A stretch of DNA of 47,597 nt, from the UHGV virus genome UHGV-1361682. One strand, 5' to 3'. The position numbers and the translations under genes are program-made. Shown here piece after piece: positions 1 through 47,597 of the stretch (positions within the stretch are counted from its first letter, which is position 1; every line of letters starts with the position of its first letter). The notes beneath the pieces were generated by a model. It was not told where the DNA came from. It worked only from the letters and a program-made list of their open reading frames with translations, and searched no databases. This DNA is from a virus.

Positions 1-54
1 ACCACCCGGTGTGTGGTCTGTGTGACCACCCGGTGTGTGGTCTGTGTGACCACC
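1..54. repeat. Left inverted terminal repeat: two tandem copies of a 24-mer ACCACCCGGTGTGTGGTCTGTGTG plus ACCACC
   Basis: Bases 1-54 are the exact reverse complement of bases 47544-47597. The internal 24-bp tandem duplication is read directly from the sequence. Confidence 0.9.
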
Positions 55-83
55 AGTGCTTGTCAGCACTACACCAGTGCTTT

Positions 84-270
84 GTGGTGGATACCACCAG
101 CGTCAGGTGGTGGATACCACCAGCGCTGTACCGTGGATACTCCGGGGATACCACCGCCATATGCCCGCGGATACCACCCGCCTATATAAGATATGTCTGA
201 TGCCACTGCACCCGCATGAGGCTGGGGATACGCTGGGATACCACAGGCTTTAGCCCGTGGATACCACACG
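84..270. repeat. Array of about 8 direct copies of GGATACCAC(C), including a 19-bp tandem pair GTGGTGGATACCACCAGCG at 84-102 and 107-125
   Basis: GGATACCAC occurs at 89, 112, 146, 169, 236 and 259, with variants GGATACTCC at 135 and GGATACGCT at 226. The GGTGGATACCACC core is quasi-palindromic. No ORF covers the array. Confidence 0.8.
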
Positions 271-350: not shown

Positions 351-378
351 TTGACACCGGTGATAGCACGTGTACAAT
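351..378 (+). promoter_or_regulatory. Sigma70-type early promoter: TTGACA-16 nt-TACAAT
   Basis: TTGACA at 351-356 and TACAAT at 373-378. It lies upstream of the first gene (465) and carries the conserved TGTACAATG core. Confidence 0.6.
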
Positions 379-7297: not shown

Positions 7298-8131
7298 ATG
7301 AATAAGACCATCATCGCCCTGACCCTGTCCCTGATCGCCACCGTTGCCAACGCCACCAATACCCCGGGCGCAGACTGCGTCGGCGTCAATGCCTGCAAGA
7401 CCAACTCGGACAACAAGACCTTCAACACCACCAACCAGCCCACGGCTTCTGTCAACGGCGTGCACTCGCAAGCACACAGCGACCAGACCCAAGGCCAGCA
7501 CCAAGGCCAGACGGCCACGGGCGGTTCTGTTGGAAGCTTCGGTGTGAACTCCCACACCAGCCTGGCCACCGGCGGGTACATGTACAACAACAAGTCCCTG
7601 AACATCAACCCTGTCACGGTGCCTGCTGCAGCGATGGTGGCCCCTTCGGCCGAGATCAGCCGTATGGCGGACCCGTACTGCGGTCCTCGCCAGCGCGTGA
7701 TGTCTACGGACGTCCAAGGCCGTGTGATCGGCCTGTTCGTGGACAGCAACGTCAAGCTTGGTGAGAACCAGTGGCTGGCCCCCGACTTCGACATGCCGTA
7801 CCGTCGGGTGGAAGTCATGCCCGGCCTTACCCAACTGATCGGCCACAAGGTGCACGAGACCACCACGGTCTTGACCGTGTCCACGTCAGGTGCCATGGCC
7901 TTCGGTGCCAACGGTAGTTCTGGTCAGGGCGGTTCCATCGGAGGGTCCCACGGAGGTGCCCTGCAGCGTATGGTGACAACGATTCGTGTCCAAGAGTGTG
8001 TGGCCTACGAAATCACGCCCGCTAAGGCCCCTAGCAGGCCCGTGGTGCCTTCCAAACCGAAAGCCAAGGTGGTTGCCCCAACCAGGGTGCAGAAAGCCTC
8101 CAAGGCCCTGAAATGCGATTGTGAGAAGTGA
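7298..8131 (+). CDS. Secreted/periplasmic protein, 277 aa, with an N-terminal signal peptide (MNKTIIALTLSLIATVANA), Gly/Ser/Thr/Gln-rich segments and a basic Pro/Lys-rich tail
   Basis: ORF track. The N-terminus has a basic n-region, a hydrophobic core and an AXA cleavage motif. AAGGAA is 8 nt upstream of the ATG. Confidence 0.6.
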   Translation: MNKTIIALTLSLIATVANATNTPGADCVGVNACKTNSDNKTFNTTNQPTASVNGVHSQAHSDQTQGQHQGQTATGGSVGSFGVNSHTSLATGGYMYNNKSLNINPVTVPAAAMVAPSAEISRMADPYCGPRQRVMSTDVQGRVIGLFVDSNVKLGENQWLAPDFDMPYRRVEVMPGLTQLIGHKVHETTTVLTVSTSGAMAFGANGSSGQGGSIGGSHGGALQRMVTTIRVQECVAYEITPAKAPSRPVVPSKPKAKVVAPTRVQKASKALKCDCEK

Positions 8132-12839: not shown

Positions 12840-13219
12840 TCCCTGCACGAACGATTGAATCCCTGCTGACCACCGGCGACAAGCGCTTCAACGTCAAGCT
12901 CAACGCCGAGTACAAGGTGGGCTCTGCGATGGTCACCGTTGGCGTGTACAAGCCCAAGGGCAAGATATACGCCGCTGGTGCCATCCGGTACAAGGACAGG
13001 CCGGCGAACGATCTGGTGAACAATGTGGCGCTGGAGATCGTGGACCGCCTGCTGTACCACAAGGAAGACCTTGCCGGGGCATGGAGCTTCGACATCGACA
13101 CCTTGAAGGTAACCATCAACGGCGAGAAGTACGAGCTGACGTTTGATGCTCCGCTGCCCCCAACCCCGGATGTGGCGCTGCGGAACGGACTGGAAATAAT
13201 CCTGCAGAGGGGGTACTGA
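12836..13219 (+). CDS. Hypothetical protein, 127 aa
   Basis: ORF track. ATGA overlap with the helicase stop, and GGAG upstream. Confidence 0.55.
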   Translation: MIPARTIESLLTTGDKRFNVKLNAEYKVGSAMVTVGVYKPKGKIYAAGAIRYKDRPANDLVNNVALEIVDRLLYHKEDLAGAWSFDIDTLKVTINGEKYELTFDAPLPPTPDVALRNGLEIILQRGY

Positions 13220-14583
13220 TGTCTGTGATGATCTTGGACTTGGAGACTGAGACCACGGGGAACCCCAAGGACCCCGTCTCCAACCCGTGGAACCCCGAGC
13301 TGTACATCGTGGCTGCTGGCTGGTGCATCGAAGACGCCTACGGCAATGGCACGATCGAGGGCCGGTACTTCGACGGGCCCACAGATGAGGAGTGGCTGAC
13401 CATCCCCGATGAGGTGGACATGCTGGTTGGCCATAACCTCCAGTACGATGTAAAGTGGCTTATGCACCGCCAGCCCAAGGCCATGTGGGGGTTCCTGCAC
13501 CGGGGCGGACGGCTGTTCGACACCCAGACCGCAGAGTTCATCCTCGGCGGCATGACGGAGCTGTACCCCGGCCTGGACACCACTGCCCCACGGTACGGCG
13601 GTACGCAGAAGGTCGATGTGGTCAAGGCGCTGTGGAAGCAGGGCATCAAGACCAGCCAGATCGAGAAGCGGATACTGTTCGACGAGTACCTGCTCGGCCC
13701 ATCTGGGGACATCGAGAACACCCGGAAGGTCTTCTGGGGTCAGGTGCAGGCCCTGCAAGCCAAGGGCATGTGGGACATGTTCATGCTGCGAATGGGTGGA
13801 TACCTGTTCAATACCATGGCGACATACAACGGCATGCACATCGACATGAAGTTGGCGGCAGAGCACCTGGCTGAGCGCGAAGCAGAGTACGAAGAGCTGG
13901 ACAAGTTCGTGCACGAGTCCCTGAAGACACGGGCACCTGACCTGCCCGGCCTGGACTTCAAGGTGACGATCAGCACGAAGCCTGCGCTGCTGTACGGTGG
14001 GTACTACAAGGCCCGGTACAGGGGCTCGTACGACCCCCCGAAGTACGTCAAGGCGGACATGTACAAGGGCGCCGACGGGAAGTATTACCCCGCCGATGGC
14101 CCGGTGCCGGAGGGTGCAGTCACATGGGCCAGTGGGGTGAACAAAGGGGCACCTAAGGTGTTCCGTGTCGATACCGATGAGGAGAAGCTGCGATGGCTTG
14201 AAGCCGAGTACGAACTGCCGGGTATCATCCCGTGGGACCATCTGACTGACGCCTTCCGGGATCGGTTGGAGAACTACGAGACCACTATGACCCACGCCGA
14301 TGGGTCCAAGGTGTACCCGACCGGCAGAGAGTTCATCGAGGCATGGGCCGAACAGCCAAGCATGCCAGAGGAGTGGAAGCCTGTGGCGAAGGCCATGGTC
14401 CGCCTCTCCGAGCTGGACAAAGAGCTGGGCACGTACTACATGAGGACCAACGGTCAGGGCGAGCAGGTAGGTATGCTCACCTACGTAGACCCATACGACA
14501 ACATAGTGCACCATGAGCTGAACACGACATCGGTGAAGACTGGGCGCCTGTCCGGAACGAAGCCTAGAATGTTGGGCTTGTAA
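13219..14583 (+). CDS. Family-A (Pol I/T7 gp5-like) DNA polymerase, N-terminal part: 3'-5' exonuclease domain and start of the polymerase domain. It ends ...TGRLSGTKP followed by 5 non-conserved residues and a stop.
   Basis: Exo motifs are present: LDLETETTG (DxE) and HNLQYDVKW. The ORF terminates inside the conserved Pol I motif GRLSS..PNLQNIP. Confidence 0.8.
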   Translation: MSVMILDLETETTGNPKDPVSNPWNPELYIVAAGWCIEDAYGNGTIEGRYFDGPTDEEWLTIPDEVDMLVGHNLQYDVKWLMHRQPKAMWGFLHRGGRLFDTQTAEFILGGMTELYPGLDTTAPRYGGTQKVDVVKALWKQGIKTSQIEKRILFDEYLLGPSGDIENTRKVFWGQVQALQAKGMWDMFMLRMGGYLFNTMATYNGMHIDMKLAAEHLAEREAEYEELDKFVHESLKTRAPDLPGLDFKVTISTKPALLYGGYYKARYRGSYDPPKYVKADMYKGADGKYYPADGPVPEGAVTWASGVNKGAPKVFRVDTDEEKLRWLEAEYELPGIIPWDHLTDAFRDRLENYETTMTHADGSKVYPTGREFIEAWAEQPSMPEEWKPVAKAMVRLSELDKELGTYYMRTNGQGEQVGMLTYVDPYDNIVHHELNTTSVKTGRLSGTKPRMLGL

Positions 14584-15264
14584 AACCATGTGAAATCAGG
14601 GAACCCTTAGCTGGGAATCCTGAGTGCCGTGCATCATAGGAAAGGCTATGCGCACCATTGAAGATATGATCGAGAACACAACGCTCACTCTTAGCATGAT
14701 CGCTAAGGAACTGGGCGTTACGTTGAAGCAGGTTGGAAAGGTATGGCGGAAGTACCCGGCAGAGTTTCGTAAGCGCCGCAAGCATATTACGTACAGCCGG
14801 GCGCAGAAGATCCACACATGGATGATAGGACGGACTGGCGCCGATCACCCCAATTACAAAGGCGTGGTTGGGGACAACAAGGGGTATCTGATGATGCTCA
14901 AGCCTGATTGGTACACAGGACGCCGCGGTTCGAAGCATGTGTTTCTTCACAACATTGTAGTGTGCGAGCGCCTCAAGATTACTGAAATTCCGAGAGGCTG
15001 GTGTGTCCACCATGTGGATTTCGACCCGCATAACAATGAGTTTGACAACCTTGTCCTGATGACAACATCCGATCATGGTAAGTTACATCAATGGATGAAA
15101 CGGCATGCAACGACTATCTCGAAAGAGAGTACACTCAAGTGGGTGGAAGCGCATGGCACACCCTTCCAAAAAGAAGGTGCTGTGAAGATATAGTCTGATC
15201 TGCATGGAAACATGCAGCTGCCGAAAGGCGGGGCAGGGAGTAACGAACCTGCCCGAACACAATG
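14566..15264 (+). mobile_element. 699-bp insertion splitting the DNA polymerase gene exactly inside the GRLSxxxP|NLxNxP motif. It carries an HNH endonuclease ORF and is a candidate group I intron or homing-endonuclease insertion.
   Basis: The upstream exon would end at U14565 and the element ends in G15264, as expected for a group I intron. The 3' flank 15194-15264 folds into three hairpins, two of them with GAAA tetraloops. The HNH ORF is internal. Confidence 0.55.
14648..15193 (+). CDS. HNH homing endonuclease, 181 aa (HHVDFDPHNNEFDNLVLMTTSDH motif)
   Basis: Track ORF 14624..15193. The start is moved to ATG 14648, with AGGAAAGG upstream. The H-N-H catalytic motif is clear. The gene sits between the two DNA polymerase halves. 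Confidence 0.85.
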   Translation: MRTIEDMIENTTLTLSMIAKELGVTLKQVGKVWRKYPAEFRKRRKHITYSRAQKIHTWMIGRTGADHPNYKGVVGDNKGYLMMLKPDWYTGRRGSKHVFLHNIVVCERLKITEIPRGWCVHHVDFDPHNNEFDNLVLMTTSDHGKLHQWMKRHATTISKESTLKWVEAHGTPFQKEGAVKI

Positions 15265-16272
15265 AATCTCACTAACGTACCGCGTGGAGACACGGCACGT
15301 GTGAAGCTGCTGTTCACCAGCCGGTTCAACGACAGGCTGTGGCTGGACAAACATCGACACGAGATTGGCGATGAGGTCTACCAGTATTGCTTGGAGGGGC
15401 TGGAGGCTGGCGAACCCCGGGGTCGGATGATCGAGATCGACTACTCGGCCCTTGAAGTGGTGGTTCTGGCTGCGTTCAGCAAGGACAAGAACCTGATTGA
15501 CGCTCTGGTCAAGGGTACCGACATGCACTGCATGCGTCTGGCGTCCTCCCTTGGTGAGCCGTACGAGGACGTGCTACGGAAGTGCAAGGACGAGAACGAC
15601 CCTCAGCACGCTGAGTACAAGAAGCTGCGGACCCTAACGAAGCCCAAAGCCTTCCAGTACCAGTACGGGGGCACTGCCTACGGCATGGCGTTCAACCTTG
15701 GATGTACAGTGGAAGAGGCCCAGGAGTTCATTGACAATGAACGGAGGCTGTTCCCCGGGGTTGAGCGCTGGTATGAGCGGAAGGTGTACCCGGAGATCGA
15801 AGGCACTTCGCACACCGTGAAGCTGGCCTACGACGATGGGGAACGCGCTGTGTTCAGGGGCACATGGACCAGCCCTGGCGGCACGGTGTACACCTTCGAG
15901 AAGAGACCCAAGGACGTGTGGATCAACGGCACCAAGACCGTTCAGATGCAGTTCCACACGCCACACATGCGTAACTTCCCGATCCAAGGGGAAGGCAGCT
16001 TCTTCGTCCAAGCCATGGCCGGGGAAGTGATGTGGGCCATCCTGGCCCGCAAGAAATGGCGGAATCTGGTGTACGCGGTCAATCAGGTGCATGACGCCCT
16101 GTACTTCGACACGCTTGACCGACTGGTCACACCTGTGGTAAAAGTAGTGAAGCCGATCATGGAATCCATCCCGGACTTCATGGCGGACTACGGGTACCAA
16201 CTGCCCGTTCCATTCCCGACAGAAGCAGAGGCCGGGGCAAACCTGTTTGAGAAACATCACGTAACCCTGTGA
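15262..16272 (+). CDS. Family-A DNA polymerase, C-terminal part (palm/fingers): motif A DYSALEVVVLA, motif B RTLTKPKAFQYQYGG, motif C QVHDALYFD
   Basis: The ORF begins MNLTNVP, which continues the PNLQNIP motif broken off in the upstream ORF. The conserved Pol I motifs are recognised by eye. Confidence 0.8.
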   Translation: MNLTNVPRGDTARVKLLFTSRFNDRLWLDKHRHEIGDEVYQYCLEGLEAGEPRGRMIEIDYSALEVVVLAAFSKDKNLIDALVKGTDMHCMRLASSLGEPYEDVLRKCKDENDPQHAEYKKLRTLTKPKAFQYQYGGTAYGMAFNLGCTVEEAQEFIDNERRLFPGVERWYERKVYPEIEGTSHTVKLAYDDGERAVFRGTWTSPGGTVYTFEKRPKDVWINGTKTVQMQFHTPHMRNFPIQGEGSFFVQAMAGEVMWAILARKKWRNLVYAVNQVHDALYFDTLDRLVTPVVKVVKPIMESIPDFMADYGYQLPVPFPTEAEAGANLFEKHHVTL

Positions 16273-19473: not shown

Positions 19474-19672
19474 TCGCAAGTGGGAAGACATCTTCTACGA
19501 CGAGCTGGCCGTGTGCGCTGAGACTGGCGCAGTCGGGCTCATGAAAGAACGGTACCACAGGCGGAAGCAGGCATTCGCTGAGCTATGGGCCGGGTCCGAC
19601 CACTGGGATGTGGTCAAGGCCAAGCTGGACCGCATCTACCGGGAAGTCAAGCAAGACTACAGGATCGAGTGA
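19457..19672 (+). CDS. Hypothetical protein, 71 aa
   Basis: In frame in track ORF 19271..19672. AAAGAGGA is upstream of ATG 19457. Its stop overlaps the RNAP start (ATGA). Confidence 0.45.
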   Translation: MSASYDRKWEDIFYDELAVCAETGAVGLMKERYHRRKQAFAELWAGSDHWDVVKAKLDRIYREVKQDYRIE

Positions 19673-22152
19673 TGAACTTCGATGAACTGCGAGCAGCAGA
19701 GCGGGTTCGTGAGATTACAACAGACCACGAAGCCCGCACGAAGGCATTGGAGAAGCTCAGCTCCGACATGGATGCAGGCCGGTCGAACTACGGCGCTGCC
19801 CGTGTCTGGCTGGCCGTGCACCACAGCACGGTGCTGGAAGCCCTGAAGGTGGTGTTCCAGGACATTGGCCGACGGGACTGGCGGTACCGTCTGTACGAGC
19901 GTATCGGCCTCTCTGAAGTGGCTGCCATCGCCATGACCACCCTTCTGGAAGTCACCGTCCCCCACGGTGGTAGCCATACCCTGGCTGGGTACCTGGTCAG
20001 GACTGGCCGGAACATCCAGGACGAGGAGAACGTCGGCCTGTACCGCGAAGCGTTCCCACTCGACTTCGAAGACTCTGCAGAGCAGTCCCGTGTCGGTCGG
20101 AACATGGTGATGAAGGATGCCCAGAAGAAGCTGGGCTCGATGCTCTCCAGCCGGTCTTCCAAGGAGCTGGCCCAGCTGGGGTTCTGGTGCTACGTGGCCA
20201 TGGACAGCTGCGGGCTCCTGCGTACCCTGAAATACCCCCGTAAAGCCACGAGAGTGGCCCTTGAAGGCGATGTCCTGCAGTTCCTGGGTGATTACCTCGA
20301 CAGTGATCTGGATCGCGTCTGGAACCGCCAGGAGAGCCGGATGCTGGCGCCGCCTGACCCATGGACGAACAGCATGGACGGTGGTTACCTGACGCCGAAC
20401 CGCAAGGCACAGGCCCCACTGCTGAAGCTCCACAGTGTCCGTAAGAGCCTGCGTGAGGAGTGGGGCCAGAACTGGTCAGCCCAACGGATGCCGAAGGTGT
20501 TCGCTGCAGTGAACTACCTGCAGTCCACTCCCTTCACAATCCATGAGCCCACCAGGAAGGCCATAACGGCCCTCTGGGACGCTGGAGGTGGTACCCTGGG
20601 TGTTCCCCTTACCCGACCCCCGATCGAGCCGCCATGGCCCTGGGAAGGGGCGCAGCGGCCGGATACGGATGAGGCGAATGCGCTGTTCCATGAATGGAAG
20701 GTCAAGAAGGCGAAATGGCACGTCCAACACGCCGAATGGCTGCAGCGTGTTCGTGAGGTAGGCGGACTGATCCAGGCCACCCGGGACATCGGAAAGCCGA
20801 TCTGGTTCCCCATGTACCTTGACTACCGGGGTCGAATGTACTACCGGGGCATCCCCAATCCCCAAGGCACGGACATGGCCAAAGGCGCCATCCACTTCTG
20901 GGAGAAGAAGCCCCTTGGTAAGCGTGGTGTGTATTGGCTGAAGGTGCACATCGCCAACAGCTACGGATACGACAAGGCCCGGAACGATGATCGGGCAAGG
21001 TGGACTGATGAGCACTGGAACGACATTGAACGGGCTCTTGATTGCCCAGCCGATGCTCCCGAAGTTTTCGGGGATGCGCCTTGGCAAATGTTCTCTGCGG
21101 CTTGGGAACTCCGGGAAGCCTACCGCTCCGGAGACCCCGAAAGCTACCTCTGCGGAGTCCCCTGCGGCGGTGATGCCACATGCAGTGGCTTGCAGCACTA
21201 CTCAGCCATACTCCTCGACGAGCACGGGGGGCCTATGGTCAACCTGGACAACGGTGACGGACTTGGGAACAAGGCCGACATCTACACCGGAGTCAGAGAC
21301 TGGGCCGTACGTGCTCTAGAATCCGACTACAGCCCCGTAGAGCGTTCGGACGATGGGACTGGTGTCATCACCCTACCCAGCGGAGAAATCGTCTCTAAAG
21401 ACCTGTACGAGTCTCGTAGGGCCACTGCCACGTGGTGGCTTGGGCGGGACATCACTCGGAGCATGGCGAAGAAGCCTGTGATGACCTACTCATACTCGGC
21501 AACCACCCGATCCGCCGGTGAGCATGTCTTCAACGAGCTGGTCGAGGAGTTCAAGAAGACTGGCGGGCAGTTCCGGATGAAGGGTGAAGGTTTCCGGGAC
21601 AGTCTGTTCCTGGGCCGGTACCTGTTCCGTGGGGTTGAGTCGAAGTTCCCTGGTGCAGCCCGGGCCATGGACTGGCTGAAGGGGCTGGTGAAGTCCTGCG
21701 GGGACAAGCCCACCAGCTGGACCACACCGTCAGGCTTCATGGTCTACCAGGATGTCCGGAAGGACAAAGCGGAGCAGCTCAGGCTGTACGCCAGACAGGA
21801 GCTGTTCAAGGTGGTTGTCCAAGGGGCGGTAGACGAGACCGATCCCCATGGCACGGAGATGGCCATGGCCCCCAACGTCATCCACAGCCTGGATGCCAGC
21901 CACCAGGTGCTGACGATCCACCGGATGATCGAGCAGGGGCTGAGCTTCATGGGCGTCCATGACTGCTTCTATACCCATGCTGGTGACATGGACTACATGC
22001 ACCGGGTACTGCGTGAGGAGTTTGTGGCCATGTACTCGGGCGACTTCCTGCGCCAACTCCGGGACCAGCTGAACCCGGAGTACGAAGACCCTCCGGAGCA
22101 AGGCGGCTTCGATCTTGGCCAAGTCTTGGATTCGGAGTTCTTCTTCTGCTGA
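19672..22152 (+). CDS. Single-subunit DNA-dependent RNA polymerase (T7 gene 1 family), 826 aa
   Basis: Motif A-like DATCSGLQHYSAIL (T7 DGSCSGIQHYSAML), motif B-like RSMAKKPVMTYSYS, motif C VHDCFYTH (T7 IHDSFGT), and C-terminus ...SEFFFC (T7 ...SDFAFA). The track ORF is longer (from 19585), but the start is set at ATG 19672, overlapping the previous stop. Confidence 0.9.
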   Translation: MNFDELRAAERVREITTDHEARTKALEKLSSDMDAGRSNYGAARVWLAVHHSTVLEALKVVFQDIGRRDWRYRLYERIGLSEVAAIAMTTLLEVTVPHGGSHTLAGYLVRTGRNIQDEENVGLYREAFPLDFEDSAEQSRVGRNMVMKDAQKKLGSMLSSRSSKELAQLGFWCYVAMDSCGLLRTLKYPRKATRVALEGDVLQFLGDYLDSDLDRVWNRQESRMLAPPDPWTNSMDGGYLTPNRKAQAPLLKLHSVRKSLREEWGQNWSAQRMPKVFAAVNYLQSTPFTIHEPTRKAITALWDAGGGTLGVPLTRPPIEPPWPWEGAQRPDTDEANALFHEWKVKKAKWHVQHAEWLQRVREVGGLIQATRDIGKPIWFPMYLDYRGRMYYRGIPNPQGTDMAKGAIHFWEKKPLGKRGVYWLKVHIANSYGYDKARNDDRARWTDEHWNDIERALDCPADAPEVFGDAPWQMFSAAWELREAYRSGDPESYLCGVPCGGDATCSGLQHYSAILLDEHGGPMVNLDNGDGLGNKADIYTGVRDWAVRALESDYSPVERSDDGTGVITLPSGEIVSKDLYESRRATATWWLGRDITRSMAKKPVMTYSYSATTRSAGEHVFNELVEEFKKTGGQFRMKGEGFRDSLFLGRYLFRGVESKFPGAARAMDWLKGLVKSCGDKPTSWTTPSGFMVYQDVRKDKAEQLRLYARQELFKVVVQGAVDETDPHGTEMAMAPNVIHSLDASHQVLTIHRMIEQGLSFMGVHDCFYTHAGDMDYMHRVLREEFVAMYSGDFLRQLRDQLNPEYEDPPEQGGFDLGQVLDSEFFFC

Positions 22153-22200: not shown

Positions 22201-22216
22201 CGTGGTCCAAACTGGA

Positions 22217-22238
22217 TGCCCACTAGTAGGAGAAGAAA
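22217..22238 (+). promoter_or_regulatory. Phage-RNAP promoter candidate P1: TGCCCACTAGTAGGAGAAGAAA
   Basis: A 22-mer that recurs at 22294 and 23035. CACTAGTAGGAGA resembles the T7 promoter core CACTATAGGGAGA. No ORF follows it, so it is not an RBS. Confidence 0.55.
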
Positions 22239-22293
22239 TCCGATTCCAATCCTTCACTGATCATCCACCTGTGGCTTCACAGCCACAAGTAGG

Positions 22294-22315
22294 TGCCCAG
22301 TAGTAGGAGAAGAAA
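22294..22315 (+). promoter_or_regulatory. Phage-RNAP promoter candidate P2: TGCCCAGTAGTAGGAGAAGAAA
   Basis: Matches P1 at 21 of 22 positions, 77 bp downstream of it. This gives a tandem pair immediately after the RNAP gene. Confidence 0.55.
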
Positions 22316-22339: not shown

Positions 22340-23034
22340 TAGCGTTTCGGCGCCAGACGCGTTGGGCAGGGGTTCGCCCCCCTGATCCTCCCCGCCTTTG
22401 ACCGTTCGGCCCCCATACCGGTCTTAGGCCCAGTCCCAGCGATAGCTCACCTTATCCGCACGTGGTGTATGTGTTGATGATGTATGCTGTTGTACCGGTT
22501 CAGACCCGGTGCCTCCTGGTGTTGACCTCCTGTCCTTCTCTATCAGACCCAATCCCGGGTTCTGGATTGAAGAGTACCCATAGGGTGCTTGTACAGGGTG
22601 GTACTGTCCTTGTGGACGGTTAAGACATAGCCAGGTGGTAAGGATAGATCACCTATCAGGTGCTCATCAGTGTTGTTCTCTTCTGTACGGTGTTGTACCA
22701 GTACAGCACTATCCTTGTGTCTATGCTCTTGTAGGCATACACAAGGATAGTGTTTGTATTGTTATATACCACAGCGGAAAGGATAGACTGAGCGGGTTCT
22801 GGTACGGGGAAGGAAGGGGGCGCGTTTTATATATATATAGAGGGGTCTGAAGACAAGCGCTAAGTGCTTGATTTTAAGGGGTTTTTTCTGTCAAAAATGG
22901 TGTCTTGCTCAGAGCTCGCACAGATTGTGAAGATTGTAACAGCGTCTAAGTACTTGATTCCATTGAAGATTTCGCATTGTGGAACAGGATCGGGTGCTGG
23001 TGTCCATCCTAGCCAAGGATCATGCCAAACTGGG
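22340..23034. other. Candidate primary replication origin and control region: low-GC noncoding DNA with AAGGATAG repeats, a 13-bp perfect inverted repeat, a (TA)n tract and an 85-bp-spaced direct repeat
   Basis: No convincing ORF. AAGGATAG occurs at 22640, 22743 and 22779, with inverted copies near 22710. TTTTATATATATATAG lies at 22826-22840. AGCGCTAAGTGCTTGATT (22857) and AGCGTCTAAGTACTTGATT (22941) are near-repeats. The position matches the T7 origin, which lies downstream of gene 1 behind tandem promoters. Confidence 0.45.
22707..22752. repeat. Perfect 13-bp inverted repeat CACTATCCTTGTG ... CACAAGGATAGTG separated by 20 bp (cruciform/hairpin-capable)
   Basis: Read directly from the sequence: arms at 22707-22719 and 22740-22752. 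The spacer contains the smaller palindrome TATGC..GCATA. Confidence 0.8.
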
Positions 23035-23055
23035 TGCCCAGTAGTAGGAAGAGGA
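23035..23055 (+). promoter_or_regulatory. Phage-RNAP promoter candidate P3: TGCCCAGTAGTAGGAAGAGGA, 10 bp upstream of the first post-RNAP gene
   Basis: The first 16 nt are identical to P2. The 3' part doubles as the SD for ATG 23066. Confidence 0.5.
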
Positions 23056-23065
23056 CCCCATCCCG

Positions 23066-31456: not shown

Positions 31457-34252
31457 ATGGCAATCCTGCGAGACTCTGAGCCGTTCCGTCGGCAAACCGA
31501 TGACACCCGTAAAGCGGGGCAGTGGTCTGGTATTGGCCAGGCTGGGGCCTCGCAGGGTGCATCGCAAAAGCGCTTCCACAACAACGAAGGCTTTTACAAT
31601 GCACTGGACCGATTGGGGGATACCCTCCACAAGGGTCTGCTGAAGCGACAGCAGATCGACTTCGACAACGCCTACCTGGCTGGCCAAGCCAAGGCTGGGA
31701 TTATCCAGGCTGAGGATGAGATTCAGAACGACCCGCTGACCCGGGACTTCGAGGTGGCTGGGTACCGCCAGGCCATGGCCAAGCTGGCTCTGGCTGAGGA
31801 GCAGCAGCGCTTCAAGGAAGACCTGCCGTACCTTCGGACCCTCGACGCAGAGGGCCTGGAAGGGTACATGACCCGCAGACGGAACACCCTGAACCCGATG
31901 CTGGCCGGACTGGCTGTGAAGGACCGTGCTGCTGCTGCTCAGCAGATGGCCGACCTCGACTTCAGTCACACCGTGCAGTGGAAGACCGAACGGCAGAAGT
32001 ACATCATCGATGAGAAGATGGCTGCCACCACCACCCAGCTGGCTGCGTTCCTTCAGGACATGCACGAAGCTCAGGTGCAGTTCGACACTGGTCAGATTGA
32101 CGAGCGCTCCTACCTGACCCGGATGGGCAGCTTCACCGAGGTGCTGAAAGCAACCTGGGATGATGACTCCCTGCCCCGCCAGGTGAAGGAGCAGTTCACT
32201 GCCCAGGCATTCCAGTCTGCGCTGCAGCAGGGTAACACCCAGCTGTATGACATCCTGACGTCCCAGAAGTTCGACAACAACATCGGCTCGGAAGAGGTGG
32301 ACGGCCCGAACTACCGGGAAGCCAGTACCTTCCTGGCACGTCTGCCCCAAGAGACTCAGAACCAGCTGGCTGGCATGTATGCCCAGGCTGAGCAGAAGCG
32401 CTCCTGGATGAAGAACTTCCAGGGCATCCAGACTGTGGCTGACCTGCGCGCACAGATTCACAACGAAGCCTACACCGGGAACCTGCAGGACTTCGACAGG
32501 CTTACCAAACCCCTGATCCACTCTGGGGCCATGTCTGTTGACGAGTATCAGCAGATGCGTGCCCAGCTTCAGTACGTCCGCAAGACTGCTGATGAGAAGG
32601 CTTTCAGCCCAGCCCCGTTCCTGTCGGGTAACCTGATGGAGCTGCTGGCCAACGGCACCACACCTGAGAAGGCTGCCCAGGCCACAGTGCAACAGATGGC
32701 TGCATCTGGGGCATCCCCTGCCCAGATTCTCGATGCCATGACCACCGCGGCCAAGAACGGTATGGTGGCTGCAGCCGGGAAGCAGATCGGGCAGATGGCT
32801 GATGTGGCCATGCAATCCGTGCTGTCCAACGATGGCAAGGTGCTGTCCCAGCACAAGGAGATGCTGGACTCGATCATCCAGAAGATGGACGATGAGGACA
32901 AGTCAGGCAATGTGTACTACCGGCAGACCATCATGGCTGGGATGTCCCCGGAGATGCGTGGTCAGTTCGAGGGGTACATGAAGAAGCTGAAGGCTGGTAA
33001 GTCAGTCGAGGTTGCTCTGTCGGAGATCGCTAAGGACGAGGCTGCTGCCAAGGCCATGCCTGCAGAGGCCCGTGCTGCCCGTGCTGCACAGCTACAGGAC
33101 GTGTACAGCAAGGCTGATGCAATGGTCCGGGATCACCGGGGCCTGTTCGCCACCATGTGGCTGAAGGCGGGTGCCCTGCTTGGTGGTGAGCAGTCTGCTG
33201 CTGAGCTGAAGCTCCGGACATCAGATTGGGCCTTCGAGGACAACCACTTCAAGACCCGCATCTACCAGAACGCAATCCAGGGTGAAGTTCGTGAGGCCAT
33301 CAAGAACATCGCCATGGCCAATCCGTCCTACGACGGTGACTCGGTGATGGACCTGGCCCTGGCCGATGTGGCTTCGCGCACCATCGAGACGAAGTGGGGT
33401 CCGGTTCCTCTGCCCCAGGGATTCTACGACACCTTTGCTTCCAAGACAGGGCTTGGCCCAGGCCAGCAGTCCATGCTGGGCAAGGCCATCGATAACCTGA
33501 CCCGTGCTGGCCATGAGGACGGTTATGTCCATGTCAAGGTGGATAGCAACGGCCGTCTGATGGCTGACTCGTACGACAAGTCCGGGAACATGGATGCTCT
33601 GGAATCCCACGAGCTGTCCCCCGAGCTAATCCGGGATGAGGTCAAGCGACTGACAGATGCCGAGGCCAAGTACAACAACGCCGTCTACGGTGATGGGTAC
33701 AAGGCTGATGGCAAAGGTGGGTCGGTGATCTTCAACGGCGCCAACGCCGCCGGTGTTCCGCACCCGGTGATGTTCGCCGTGCGGTGGGTGCTGTCCAAGT
33801 TCGAGGGAGTCACAGACACCCCGTACCAGGATGGCAAGTTCAAGTCCGTGGGTGTTGGGATCAATGAGCAGAACCCACACTACCCCGAGTCCGCCCGGAA
33901 GACCGGCAAGGCCAGCCCAGAGGACATCAACAAGTCCTTCGCCGCCGCGTCGGAGGCTGCTGTGAAGTCCGCCAAGAACATCCTCGAAGGTCTGGGGATG
34001 AACGTAGGCAACTCTGCCCTGCTGGAGATGGCATCGTCCATGGCCTATCAGGGTGGTGAAGGCTTTGCGATCGGCAAGACCCCATCGGCGAAAGCTGGCA
34101 GGGCTATGCTGGAAGCAGTGAAGGAAGGCGACTACGACAAGGCCCTGGCCGAGTTCAAGAAGACCGCAGTGTACAAGGTGAGTCCCGAGGACCGCCGTCG
34201 GTACTATGTAGCACGGCTGCACACAGCAGCCACATCATCGAAGGTTCAGTAA
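31457..34252 (+). CDS. Internal virion protein B (gp15-like), 931 aa
   Basis: ORF track. Size and position are as in T7-like phages. Confidence 0.65.
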   Translation: MAILRDSEPFRRQTDDTRKAGQWSGIGQAGASQGASQKRFHNNEGFYNALDRLGDTLHKGLLKRQQIDFDNAYLAGQAKAGIIQAEDEIQNDPLTRDFEVAGYRQAMAKLALAEEQQRFKEDLPYLRTLDAEGLEGYMTRRRNTLNPMLAGLAVKDRAAAAQQMADLDFSHTVQWKTERQKYIIDEKMAATTTQLAAFLQDMHEAQVQFDTGQIDERSYLTRMGSFTEVLKATWDDDSLPRQVKEQFTAQAFQSALQQGNTQLYDILTSQKFDNNIGSEEVDGPNYREASTFLARLPQETQNQLAGMYAQAEQKRSWMKNFQGIQTVADLRAQIHNEAYTGNLQDFDRLTKPLIHSGAMSVDEYQQMRAQLQYVRKTADEKAFSPAPFLSGNLMELLANGTTPEKAAQATVQQMAASGASPAQILDAMTTAAKNGMVAAAGKQIGQMADVAMQSVLSNDGKVLSQHKEMLDSIIQKMDDEDKSGNVYYRQTIMAGMSPEMRGQFEGYMKKLKAGKSVEVALSEIAKDEAAAKAMPAEARAARAAQLQDVYSKADAMVRDHRGLFATMWLKAGALLGGEQSAAELKLRTSDWAFEDNHFKTRIYQNAIQGEVREAIKNIAMANPSYDGDSVMDLALADVASRTIETKWGPVPLPQGFYDTFASKTGLGPGQQSMLGKAIDNLTRAGHEDGYVHVKVDSNGRLMADSYDKSGNMDALESHELSPELIRDEVKRLTDAEAKYNNAVYGDGYKADGKGGSVIFNGANAAGVPHPVMFAVRWVLSKFEGVTDTPYQDGKFKSVGVGINEQNPHYPESARKTGKASPEDINKSFAAASEAAVKSAKNILEGLGMNVGNSALLEMASSMAYQGGEGFAIGKTPSAKAGRAMLEAVKEGDYDKALAEFKKTAVYKVSPEDRRRYYVARLHTAATSSKVQ

Positions 34253-43643: not shown

Positions 43644-43943
43644 ATGGAAGCATCCCTGCAGCAGCAGCTGCAGGATGCCCTCTGGAAAGTAGCCGAGCTG
43701 CAGGTCAAGTCCTTTCAGGACCGCCTGCAGCAGGATATGGCAGATGGCATCCCGACAGACGCTGCAACCCTCACAGCAATCACTTCTGCCCTGAAGCTCC
43801 ACGGAGTGCACCTGGGTGCTTCCCAGCCGGCTGTCGAAGACCCCGTATCGGATGTCCGCGGACAGCTGGATGAGCTGAAGGCCAGACTGGCACAGCGCAG
43901 ACAGTCCCTCACCGCTGAGACCGTGTCAAGGGTTCTGCAATGA
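43644..43943 (+). CDS. Terminase small subunit candidate, 99 aa
   Basis: AGGAG RBS is present. It is a small coiled-coil-like protein immediately upstream of, and overlapping (ATGA), the large terminase, as in phiKMV-like phages. Confidence 0.55.
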   Translation: MEASLQQQLQDALWKVAELQVKSFQDRLQQDMADGIPTDAATLTAITSALKLHGVHLGASQPAVEDPVSDVRGQLDELKARLAQRRQSLTAETVSRVLQ

Positions 43944-45709
43944 TTCGTTCTGAAGAAGAACGTCTGAGGATTGCCTTGGAGACATCCGAGGCATTCCCGG
44001 AGTTCCTGGACTTCGCATGGCTTGCTGCCGAGAAGTACATCCCCGGCTTCCATGTCATGTCTGCTGTGCAGGAGGACATGTGCCGGTACCTACAGTATGG
44101 CCCACAGAAGCGCATGCTTCAGGCCCAGCGTGGTGAAGGCAAGTCGTACATCACGGCATTCTATGTCGTGTGGAGACTGATCCAAGACCCGAAGGAGATC
44201 ATCCTGGTGATGTCCGCGGGTAAGGAGCTGGCTGAGCAGATGTCCCACCTGCTTACCCAGATGATCATGAGCTGGGACATCCTCGAATACATGGCCCCGT
44301 CGGCCAACGACGGTGACCGTACTGGGGTGAAGTCCTTCGACATCCACCGGATGCTGAAGGGTCTTAACAAGTCCCCCTCCATCTCTATCGTGTCATCCCG
44401 CACAGCTCTGCCTGGCCGTCGTGCCTCTGTGGTGCTGGCTGATGACGTGGAGTCGGATGAGAACGCCCTCACGGCTGCAACCCGTGAGAAGCTGTTGAAC
44501 AAGTGCCGTGAGCTGTCCCGCATCTGTACCCATGGGGATGTGATCTTCCTGGGCACGCCACAGACCAAGGACTCGATCTACAACTCCCTGGAGCGGATGG
44601 GGTACGATGTCCGTGTGTGGCCTGGTCGTTACCCTGCCCAGGGTGAGGACATCTACGGGTACAAGCTGGCCCCGATGATCCGCGAAGCCATGGACGCCGA
44701 TCCCAGTCTCCGGACAGGTGGTGGGATGTCTGGGCGGATGGGCAAGCCTACAGACCCGACTCGGTACACCGAGCAGGAGCTGCAGGACAAGGAGCTGGCA
44801 GATGGCCCAGAGCAGTTCGCTCTGAACTACCTGCTGGACACCAGCCTGTCGGATGAGATCCGTCTGCAGCTGAAGGTCCGTGATCTGATCGTTGGTGCCT
44901 ACCCCACAGACCATGTGCCGGATCAGCTGATCTGGAACAGGGACAACCAGAACCGTGTGCCTCTCGATCCGCTCTTCCCCCTGGTGGGGGTGGAGCTGTA
45001 CTACGGCATCCGGACTGGGGAGCGTTTCGAAGTGCCAAGCACCGTGTGGTGCACCATTGACCCATCGGGTGAGGGGGCTGACGAAACGGCCCTTACAGCC
45101 GCGTGTGCCGTGGGTGACAACATCCATATCCTCGGCATCGATGCGTTCCGTGGTGGGCTTTCTGAGGCCAACCAGGACCGTTTCCTGGGCTTCTTCAGGA
45201 AGTACAAGGTGACACACATCCGTGTGGAGTCCAACATGGGGCATGGCCTGTTCGAGCTTGGGCTCAGGAACCTGCTGAAAGGTACTGACCTGGCCCACCT
45301 GGCCAGCTGTGTCTCAGGTGACTACAGCACTGGTCAGAAGGAGCGTCGGATCATCAACACTATCCGGCCTGTCCTGGAACGGCACCGCCTCGTGATCCAT
45401 GAGGATGTGCTGAAGCAGGATGCCCAGTGCTGTATGGCATACGGTGTGGGTGAGCGAGCAAGCTTCAGCCTGTTCCACCAGATGTCGAACATCACCACAG
45501 ATAGAGAATCTCTATCCCACGATGACAGGCTGGACTCGCTGGCTATGGCTGTGCAGCTACTGGCCCCCGCCATCATGACAGACCCTCAAAAGCTTGCCGA
45601 AGAGCGGGAAGCGCAACAATGGAAGGAGTGGGTAGACTCCCTATTCAACCCCAAATGGAAAGACAAAGCACATTCTGGACTTGGTGGTCCTACACCGTGG
45701 GATCGATAA
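43940..45709 (+). CDS. Terminase large subunit, 589 aa (Walker A-like QRGEGKSY; nuclease domain)
   Basis: Size and the P-loop-like motif match the T7 gp19 family. Position is at the right end of the structural module. Confidence 0.8.
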   Translation: MIRSEEERLRIALETSEAFPEFLDFAWLAAEKYIPGFHVMSAVQEDMCRYLQYGPQKRMLQAQRGEGKSYITAFYVVWRLIQDPKEIILVMSAGKELAEQMSHLLTQMIMSWDILEYMAPSANDGDRTGVKSFDIHRMLKGLNKSPSISIVSSRTALPGRRASVVLADDVESDENALTAATREKLLNKCRELSRICTHGDVIFLGTPQTKDSIYNSLERMGYDVRVWPGRYPAQGEDIYGYKLAPMIREAMDADPSLRTGGGMSGRMGKPTDPTRYTEQELQDKELADGPEQFALNYLLDTSLSDEIRLQLKVRDLIVGAYPTDHVPDQLIWNRDNQNRVPLDPLFPLVGVELYYGIRTGERFEVPSTVWCTIDPSGEGADETALTAACAVGDNIHILGIDAFRGGLSEANQDRFLGFFRKYKVTHIRVESNMGHGLFELGLRNLLKGTDLAHLASCVSGDYSTGQKERRIINTIRPVLERHRLVIHEDVLKQDAQCCMAYGVGERASFSLFHQMSNITTDRESLSHDDRLDSLAMAVQLLAPAIMTDPQKLAEEREAQQWKEWVDSLFNPKWKDKAHSGLGGPTPWDR

Positions 45710-45732: not shown

Positions 45733-45876
45733 ATGCAGACTGTTGCCGTGGTCGTGGGTATCCTCGCTACCCTCGGCACATGGCTTGTGAACTGGTGGTA
45801 CAGAAGGAAGGAGGACCGAAGGGCAGCTGAGTCCCACGAGTGGGAACGTCAGGCCCGCTTCGGTCTGATGAAGTGA
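45733..45876 (+). CDS. Holin-like small membrane protein, 47 aa (one TM helix, charged C-terminus)
   Basis: In frame in track ORF 45619..45876. TAGGAG RBS is upstream of ATG 45733. It is the first gene of the lysis-like cluster after the terminase. Confidence 0.45.
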   Translation: MQTVAVVVGILATLGTWLVNWWYRRKEDRRAAESHEWERQARFGLMK

Positions 45877-46283: not shown

Positions 46284-46428
46284 AGGGCCTCCTGACGCGC
46301 CTGAGGGGGATCCTTGGGGATCTGCTCTGCAGTTCCTGCTGTGGGGGAATGAACAAGCGCTTGCCAGGGAGCTGTGCAGGCTGGAGATACAAAGGAGTCT
46401 AGATGGACCTGGGAACGCTGCCAAGTGA
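46126..46428 (+). CDS. Rz1-like outer-membrane lipoprotein spanin (o-spanin), 100 aa. It starts inside Rz in the +1 frame and extends beyond it (overlapped architecture).
   Basis: Lipoprotein-type signal MLRRPKYGRLLLVLALLIMPGC, then a Pro-rich mature region (PPPVCLERPEGPPDAPEGDP). A strong RBS, GAAGGAGAAG, is upstream. Confidence 0.55.
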   Translation: MLRRPKYGRLLLVLALLIMPGCSVLQKRPVEPSGASQSLGKVVPPPVCLERPEGPPDAPEGDPWGSALQFLLWGNEQALARELCRLEIQRSLDGPGNAAK

Positions 46429-47542
46429 TGACCCAAAGTACAAGAAGCGTGTGGGTAAGGGCTGGGTACAGATGCACGGCCTGTACAACCTTCGGATCGG
46501 AGCATCTGGGAACCAGGTGGCTGTACGGTTCCGGTCTGAGCTGACTGGGAACCTGCAGGCCATTGGGTTCTATGCCCAGTCGGGTAGTGGGTATGCCCTG
46601 GGGAATGGTGGGAGTGCCACCATCACGCTGAGGGGAGACGCTGGTGGGAAGCTGGGTACCATCCTGGGGACCAGCAACCACAGCTTCAAAGATGATGGAC
46701 ACTCAGCAGCGTCTGGGAAGGCCATCCAGACCCGTGTGAACCTGACTGGCCACATGATTGCTGGCCGGCACTACTGGGTGGTCTTCGAGAATGGGGACCC
46801 GGGGAACTACACGAGCTTCAACAATGCAGGCCTTCGGAAGGACATGGGATCCCAGCCTCATGTCTGGCAAGACCCTAACGACTGGTCTGTTTGGTACGGC
46901 CCGCTGAACAACCTCCAGAATTACAGCACTGGTGCGCATCCACAGCTGAAGGCTTACCCCATCCTGGCCCTGCACACCGATAAGGGCACCTTCGGGTACA
47001 CACCCATTGAGGGTGGTGCTGTGCAGAGGAATACCACCCGGAAGGGACCGCTGACATGCTACGAGGGGAAGAAGATCGCTCAGGTCTTCCACAACGTCAT
47101 GGGACAGCTGGAGGGGCTCTCCGTGGCCCTGGGACCGTCTGTTCAGGATCAGGTGTTCCGGATCACCATCAAGGGCGTCAACACCGTAGGCATGGAAGTC
47201 ACCTGCCTGTGGAAGGAACCACAGGAGCGTGAAGCCCTGACCACGAACTACTACGCCAGGGTCTACCCATGGTGGCACTGGTTCATGCCGTCCGCTGTCT
47301 TCGCCTCTGGGGATGTGACTGTCACCATCGAGTCTGATCAGATGTTTGGGTGCAACCCCATCCGCTGGGGTGGTCCATTCCAGTATGGTGGGAAGCCTGT
47401 CTACACCGCTGATGGGCAGGACACAGGCTATGCCATAGCCCTGATGCCCAATGGACAGTTCCTGCCTATCAACCACAATGCATGGCAGAGCAATGGGTCC
47501 AACAAGGAGTCTCAGTGGCCCATGACGCTTCACCTACGGTAA
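46403..47542 (+). CDS. Hypothetical protein, 379 aa, last gene of the genome (Gly/Asn/Trp-rich; function unknown; could be a structural, receptor-binding or lysis-associated protein)
   Basis: ORF track. AAAGGAG RBS is 5 nt upstream. It ends 2 nt before the right ITR. Confidence 0.55.
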   Translation: MDLGTLPSDDPKYKKRVGKGWVQMHGLYNLRIGASGNQVAVRFRSELTGNLQAIGFYAQSGSGYALGNGGSATITLRGDAGGKLGTILGTSNHSFKDDGHSAASGKAIQTRVNLTGHMIAGRHYWVVFENGDPGNYTSFNNAGLRKDMGSQPHVWQDPNDWSVWYGPLNNLQNYSTGAHPQLKAYPILALHTDKGTFGYTPIEGGAVQRNTTRKGPLTCYEGKKIAQVFHNVMGQLEGLSVALGPSVQDQVFRITIKGVNTVGMEVTCLWKEPQEREALTTNYYARVYPWWHWFMPSAVFASGDVTVTIESDQMFGCNPIRWGGPFQYGGKPVYTADGQDTGYAIALMPNGQFLPINHNAWQSNGSNKESQWPMTLHLR

Positions 47543-47543
47543 T

Positions 47544-47597
47544 GGTGGTCACACAGACCACACACCGGGTGGTCACACAGACCACACACCGGGTGGT
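47544..47597. repeat. Right inverted terminal repeat (reverse complement of 1-54)
   Basis: GGTGGTCACACAGACCACACACCGGGT x2 + GGT is the exact reverse complement of the left end. It begins 2 nt after the stop codon of the last gene. Confidence 0.9.

Follow-up and report, generated by a model that had tools for sequence, protein, structure and literature searches.

Apparent terminal inverted repeats on a contig of a T7-like oral phage and the inverted repeat pair around its endolysin gene

Described systems with repeated or inverted ends

Repeated or inverted sequence that bounds a map or one of its segments is known from: (i) phages of the T7 group, including phiKMV and other Autographiviridae, which have direct terminal repeats, host-type early promoters at the left and repeat arrays in non-coding end DNA, (ii) protein-primed replicons, such as phi29 (Salasmaviridae), PRD1 (Tectiviridae) and Cp-1, which carry inverted terminal repeats (ITRs) at their physical ends together with a family B polymerase and a terminal protein, (iii) hairpin-telomere replicons (N15-like), which use a protelomerase and a palindromic resolution site, (iv) the invertible segments of Mu (G) and P1 (C), in which a short unique segment with tail-fibre genes lies between inverted repeats (~0.6 kb in P1 C), is turned by a Gin/Cin-type serine invertase and occurs in both orientations, and (v) the quadripartite chloroplast map, in which a large and a small unique segment are each bounded by one inverted repeat and flip-flop isomers occur. 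Contigs of de Bruijn-graph assemblers (e.g., SPAdes and MEGAHIT) add a further source, since their ends can overlap by k bases. The usual k-length overlap is direct and is found on a circular genome; its inverted counterpart occurs in chloroplast assemblies, at single-copy contigs that stop within the inverted repeat. The consequence for completeness calls is documented: in CheckV, only 33.2% of ITR-flagged contigs were of high quality (PMC8116208), and incomplete genomes with repeats on both sides are known to give false positives (bioRxiv 10.1101/2022.09.02.506393).

The stretch of DNA analysed here (the window, 47,597 bp, UHGV virus genome UHGV-1361682) is best explained, with a probability of roughly 0.88, as an incomplete contig of a phiKMV-like (Autographiviridae-type) oral phage, the ends of which are overlaps into an internal 619-bp inverted repeat. 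The full map is reconstructed as a large unique segment (U; 47,487 bp), the repeat (IR; 619 bp), a short unique segment with the endolysin gene (W; 664 bp) and the inverted copy of the repeat (IR'; 619 bp), which together make 49,389 bp (~49.4 kb). In nothing essential does the window differ from de Bruijn-graph overlaps, with which it shares a k-long end repeat (55, 119 or 127 nt, depending on the assembly) and sequence that continues beyond it; here, the k-mer falls in a 24-nt tandem duplication and thereby mimics a designed terminus. With T7 and phiKMV the phage shares gene content and order, early promoters of host type at the left and repeat arrays in its non-coding end, but its end junction holds an inverted duplication of 0.6-0.8 kb with the endolysin gene at the centre, an arrangement that, to our knowledge, is described for no other T7/phiKMV member. 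The likeness to phi29, PRD1 and Cp-1 is limited to inverted sequence at the ends of the record. By contrast with these protein-primed replicons, the ends are not physical termini (they are internal in other assemblies), the polymerase is of family A, a primase and a DnaB-like helicase are present, no family B polymerase or terminal protein is detected in the ORFs scanned, the genome is 47-49 kb and the packaging genes are of the T7 type. For the hairpin-telomere class, the ORFs scanned give no protelomerase or recombinase match, and at the centre of the inverted structure, where a palindromic resolution site would be expected, lies a non-palindromic coding segment of 664 bp. The topology is that of the chloroplast map, yet the scale is that of a phage (47.5, 0.62 and 0.66 kb for large segment, repeat and small segment), the virion DNA of this lytic phage is linear, the repeat is non-coding and flip-flop isomers are seen in 0/7 contigs. 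The layout likewise matches that of Mu G and P1 C (a short unique segment between inverted repeats of ~0.6 kb), with the differences that no Gin/Cin-type serine invertase is detected, the cargo is an endolysin gene rather than tail-fibre genes and a single orientation is observed.

Gene content and end sequences of the window

The first-pass annotation had described the window as a T7-like genome with a family A polymerase and without a terminal protein or protelomerase, and had set its inverted ends against the direct terminal repeats of T7-group phages. The points on direct terminal repeats and on the family A polymerase are correct, and Pfam and PHROG matches confirm a phiKMV-type gene set. 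The main features of the window are as follows.

1..55, + strand: inner 55 nt of IR', the left copy of the 619-bp inverted repeat (identical to the last 55 nt of the reverse-complemented IR from contig L014)
56..47542, + strand: U, the large single-copy segment of 47,487 bp, with all genes on the + strand
72..270, + strand: non-coding left-end repeat arrays (repeat search, TRF)
351..378, + strand: sigma-70-like early promoter, TTGACA-16-TACAAT (11/12 matches)
13219-14583 and 15262-16272, + strand: family A DNA polymerase in two ORFs (Pfam/PHROG)
14624-15193, + strand: HNH endonuclease gene between the polymerase halves
19585..22152, + strand: single-subunit (T7-type) RNA polymerase in a phiKMV-like position (PF00940, E = 1e-88; phrog_414)
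43644-43943, + strand: small terminase
43940..45709, + strand: large terminase of T7 type (PF22530, phrog_17672/38)
45733..45876, + strand: pinholin (P21 S-type holin) of 47 aa (PF16080, PF04971)
46403..47542, + strand: last ORF, 379 aa, with no Pfam or PHROG match
47543..47597, + strand: inner 55 nt of IR, the right copy of the 619-bp inverted repeat, which continues in other assemblies

The single-subunit RNA polymerase, the family A polymerase (PF00476, phrog_9556/2573), the T7-type terminase and the one-strand gene order place the phage among the T7/phiKMV-like viruses. Further T7-like genes encode a primase, a DnaB-like helicase, an exonuclease and endonuclease VII, and the structural set comprises portal, scaffold, capsid, tail tube proteins, internal virion proteins and tail fibre. 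For many early ORFs, Pfam and PHROG return nothing. Among the 39 ORFs scanned (a few small and structural ORFs fell outside this set), none matches a family B polymerase, recombinase, protelomerase or terminal protein in Pfam or PHROG, the last being a class of proteins that is hard to recognise by sequence. The 379-aa ORF is kept at the right end in all related contigs and in the relative NODE_99. The large terminase is at most 45% identical to those of cultured phages (Sphaerotilus, Macromonas, Pseudomonas and Ralstonia phages), and megablast of half of the window against GenBank phages returns only short polymerase, HNH and exonuclease matches and no close relative. The DNA at ~15106-15270 is 75-97% identical to the HNH/polymerase junctions of many unrelated Autographiviridae (Acinetobacter, Escherichia and Klebsiella phages), which suggests that the HNH gene is a mobile (homing) endonuclease cassette. 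Within the gene for the 1478-aa internal virion protein (34252-38688), imperfect tandem repeats (GCCAAGGCTGCTGAG-like) at 36073-36184 encode an alanine/lysine-rich stretch.

The two ends of the window are reverse complements at 100% identity over 55 nt (1-55 versus 47543-47597), and base 56 mismatches its counterpart. The perfect inverted repeat reported in the first-pass annotation is thus present in the orientation given, with a length one base above the 54 bp stated there. The tandem duplication of a 24-mer within each end is likewise borne out, at 2.3 copies per arm; TRF reports for the terminal repeat a period of 24, 2.2 copies and a 100% match. The 24-mer, ACCACCCGGTGTGTGGTCTGTGTG, occurs four times in the whole window, twice at each end and nowhere else, and with up to 3 mismatches allowed it has no match in 100 shuffles. 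An exact search for it in IMG/VR gave no match. The duplication is merely the innermost stretch of IR in the window strain: it is confined to that strain, and contig comparison finds near-identical strains with a single copy. In ENA scaffold_92 (L001, 11197-11306), a run of N separates two copies of the initial part of IR, both with one 24-mer, and shows either that the copy number (1 or 2) differs among near-identical strains or that scaffolders were confused.

The two ends differ in what lies inside the repeat. At the right, the repeat starts one base after the stop codon of the 379-aa ORF, so the non-coding DNA of this end is the repeat alone. At the left, ~400 nt of non-coding DNA follow, with arrays of three 23-nt repeats (72-140) and six GGATACC motifs (core GTGGATACCAC) in one orientation. 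In other strains, the stretch equivalent to 72-270 belongs to the inverted repeat. The near-palindromic GTGGATACCAC arrays with their GGATACC core span 87-270 of the window and return inverted in IR (L014, 295-619); GGATACC occurs 13 times in IR' plus the left part of U, and GGTATCC, the opposite orientation, seven times in IR. NODE_99 has GGTACTACTGGTAC-type arrays at the matching place. The GTGGATACCAC and GGTACTACTGGTAC arrays may, as their form suggests, be lineage-specific sites for a DNA-binding protein.

Beyond the arrays, the sigma-70-like promoter at 351-378 and a second, identical one at 804-831 flank the first gene (465-785) and mark this end as the true left, early side of a T7-like genome. 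The leader of the first gene includes a (CACAA)n tract at 424-447. Further along the window, a 29-nt element (core GGTGCCCASTAGTAGGAR) occurs three times, at 22210-22238, 22287-22315 and 23028-23056 (consensus hits at 22215, 22292 and 23033), just 3' of the RNA polymerase gene and 5' of the structural genes. These elements are probably promoters for the phage RNA polymerase. A search of IR and W for phage-promoter-like repeats of the GGTGCCCASTAGTAGGAR consensus found none, and a scan of the same two segments for sigma-70 promoters and terminators was also negative.

Repeat length and continuation past the window in other assemblies

Through the exact proteins of the last and first genes of the window, the same phage was found in several human oral metagenome assemblies. 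The inverted end repeat recurs in assemblies that are 99.97-100% identical to the window, and its length differs: 55 nt in the window, 119 nt in k119_81992 and 127 nt in k127_159878, the values of k for the two MEGAHIT contigs being taken from the contig names. The k127_159878 contig (L003/L004) is 47,741 bp, or 47,487 plus 2x127, and shows 100% identity to the window in the 22 kb that were compared. At either side it reaches 72 nt beyond the window, and the inverted repeat at its termini measures exactly 127 nt. For k119_81992 (L005), the contig starts precisely 119 nt before the unique sequence begins. Each of the three left ends (window, L004 and L005) equals the reverse complement of IR over its last 55, 127 and 119 nt, respectively. 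The repeat length therefore equals k and shifts with it, as in contig-end artefacts of de Bruijn graphs. The largest default k of SPAdes and metaSPAdes is 55, and the assembler of the window presumably used this value.

Sequence also continues past the apparent terminus. At the right end, ENA scaffold_92, JGI Ga0495776_158730 and k119_78080 (L001, L002/L013 and L012) run 1,277-1,447 nt further. At 99.97-99.99% identity to the window, they carry, after the last gene, 619 nt of non-coding DNA followed by a gene of the Phage_lysozyme family (180 aa). The same lysozyme and the 379-aa protein also occur together on a contig of 53,043 bp. After the stop codon of the 379-aa gene, L002 is identical to IR over all 619 nt and L003 over 127 nt. 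A shorter contig, L014 (1,342 bp), consists of IR (619 nt), W (664 nt) and the first 59 nt of IR'; its first base is the base right after the stop codon of the 379-aa gene. W is also found alone as a 664-bp contig (L009, L017), and in two k127 assemblies as a 918-bp contig (664 plus 2x127; L015, L016), the two ends of which are exact inverted copies over 127 nt. In another strain, one sample yields IR and W on two scaffolds of their own (L048, 789 bp, and L020, 693 bp, respectively), the ends of which coincide exactly with the IR/W and IR/stop-codon boundaries.

The proposed origin of the apparent ITR is as follows. U would meet one repeat, in opposite orientations, at both of its ends, and a de Bruijn-graph assembler would halt the U edge at the branching vertex. 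The unique edge would keep exactly k bases of the adjoining repeat at each end. A circular genome would give a k-bp direct overlap by this route, and a segment between inverted repeat copies would give a k-bp inverted overlap; at k = 55, the window would carry a perfect 55-bp inverted repeat. With k-base remnants of IR on both ends of U, the apparent ITR would be an edge overlap, neither a terminus nor a mis-oriented direct repeat. Of the explanations offered in the first-pass annotation, an assembly artefact is thus upheld as a class but not in the form proposed: the orientation is genuine, with U flanked by two copies of a real 619-bp inverted repeat, and no direct repeat was turned around.

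If the inverted ends were accepted as they stand, true ITRs on a T7-like phage that has a polymerase of family A would imply a new mode of linear-DNA replication or packaging; the evidence shows otherwise for this phage, and the terminal inverted repeat is not real as a feature of the genome ends. Contig ends that carry an inverted repeat with a length of exactly k instead mark a cut at an internal inverted repeat, not a complete genome. Under ITR-based rules (CheckV-style, at least 20 nt), the window would be miscalled complete. It is functionally incomplete: the pinholin is present, its partner endolysin is absent and is encoded in W (L014:741-1283; PF00959, E = 1e-34), and the window is ~1.9 kb short, endolysin included. 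The hydrophobic N-terminus of the W endolysin, read from its sequence, suggests a signal-anchor-release type.

The inverted repeat pair around the endolysin gene

The two arms of the reconstructed map are documented to different extents. IR is covered in full, whereas for the left arm the directly documented parts are 127 nt on the inner side and 127 nt (210 nt in another strain) on the outer side, and the middle 365 nt are inferred to complete a full IR copy. Among the contigs seen, none spans the end of W, the full IR' and the left part of U. Contigs that join W to the rest of the genome do so at the right end of U in 7/7 cases and at the left end in 0, a bias not expected from a fully symmetric graph. 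It could stem from physical ends in the left arm or, equally, from breaks in the strain-variable, repeat-rich left end (cf. L006-L008, L045-L047); in every assembly seen, contigs break within the repeat-rich end region. By analogy with T7 and phiKMV, the virion DNA may have a direct terminal repeat between W and the early promoters, i.e., in the left arm, which would explain why the endolysin segment is attached to the right side only.

Contig tips beyond the end of W were considered as a separate indication of a physical end. Five long contigs stop 33-59 nt past the lysozyme gene, which raised the possibility of a terminus right after this gene. Four of the tips (33, 33, 39 and 59 nt) are k-ladder values of metaSPAdes or MEGAHIT; those of 37 nt (L019) and 90 nt (L032) correspond to no standard k. 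Other contigs run 127-210 nt further, and a physical end at this place is rejected as the main reading.

The same order (379-aa gene, IR, lysozyme, IR') is found in at least four further strains (L019/L048, L021-L030, L031-L033, L036 and L040). In all five strains examined, an inverted repeat pair of 575-789 bp encloses the endolysin gene, at the junction from the last gene of the map to the first. IR is about 80-93% identical between strains. Strains are internally consistent: wherever the two flanks of W can be compared, they are identical (127 nt per boundary in two strains and 117 nt in a third). The inner boundary of IR is variable in form, with a single 24-mer, an 11-mer in five copies or a (CA)n array in other strains, and in some strains the right arm also includes an inverted copy of 56-140, which is unique left-end sequence in the window. 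Elements common to the strains are a C7ACG6 element, a conserved 50-nt core, ATTGCCAGTGCAG repeats and many GGATACC-type motifs. The predicted folding energy of the conserved C7/G6 element is no better than that of shuffled sequence (z = 0.12). A metagenome scan with a conserved 34-mer of IR recovered one contig, L036, in which the right part of U, IR and W follow one another.

Several readings other than an edge overlap at an internal repeat have been weighed. If the genome truly ended at the 24-mers, with short real ITRs (~55 bp) and protein-primed or some other non-T7 end replication, the perfect 55-nt inverted repeat at the contig ends and the tidy look of a right copy that abuts a stop codon would be expected. 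Assemblies 99.97-100% identical to the window nevertheless go 64-72 nt (k119, k127) or ~1.4 kb further, the repeat length varies with k, the window is without its endolysin and the family A polymerase and T7-type terminase are accompanied by no detectable terminal protein or family B polymerase. The continuation of these assemblies past the window ends effectively refutes short true ITRs, and leaves unsupported both the genuinely unusual end structure and the ends set by a novel packaging mechanism that the first-pass annotation had entertained. Linear virion DNA with long true ITRs of at least 1.4-1.9 kb (IR, W and part of IR'), in which the endolysin gene would be present twice in opposite orientations, is a different matter, as the graph alone cannot tell it from a circular or concatemeric map. 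Such ITRs predict that a reversed W is joined through IR' to the left part of U as often as W is joined through IR to the right part, against an observed 0 versus 7; the T7-type terminase and gene order favour packaging from concatemers with direct repeats; and the end region of NODE_99 is single and in one orientation, with the lysozyme gene in a normal lysis cassette. Long true ITRs are therefore judged highly improbable.

The remaining alternative is that IR-W-IR' actively flips and that both orientations of the endolysin segment coexist, as in Mu G, P1 C and chloroplast flip-flop. The inverted pair of 575-789 bp is maintained around a short unique segment in all five strains even though the repeat has diverged between them, and the flanks sampled match within strains (127 nt per boundary in two, 117 nt in the third). 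The ORFs scanned include no match to an invertase or recombinase, though, and a flipped endolysin gene would be antisense to late transcription in a genome with all genes on one strand. Because W is co-oriented with the other genes in 7/7 long contigs that cross IR, frequent flipping is unlikely. The reading of the window ends as k-base overlaps into an internal inverted repeat is retained.

The relative NODE_99 (47,950 bp) gives an indication of how the duplication may have arisen. Its lysozyme gene is in the usual place after the terminase and it has a single copy of the end region, oriented like IR'; no repeat, direct or inverted, is common to its two ends. The single end region and the usual lysozyme site make the right arm and the relocated endolysin gene of the window lineage look like an inverted duplication of an ancestral end region. 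The left end of this contig (L037 1-55; ERZ21659585 NODE_99_length_47950) consists of GTAGTAGTAGG in five copies, exactly 55 nt, and is another k = 55 break, here inside a tandem array.

The large inverted end-region duplication around the endolysin gene is real and kept in this oral lineage, and is of modest note as a mildly unusual feature for T7-like phages. Whether the 1.9-2.3 kb quasi-palindrome formed by IR, the endolysin gene and IR' has a function at the right/left junction of a T7-like genome is a more speculative matter, and such a role is considered possible but doubtful. Were the left arm to hold the direct terminal repeat, virion DNA would have its left terminus repeated in inverted form ~1.3 kb from the right end. 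In that case, the inverted copy could serve concatemer processing, duplication of the terminal repeat or, by fold-back, origin function.

Searches that bear on the host were made with two proteins. A scan of a genome collection with the lysozyme recovered only an unrelated Rhodobacterales match at 33% identity, which gives no host clue. The 277-aa early protein (7298-8131) has homologues of 75-83% identity on very many contigs of ~38-39 kb (Logan, ENA), the carriers of which look like a separate, abundant phage group. One of these homologues is labelled as from an uncultured Actinomyces sp., a possible clue to the host.
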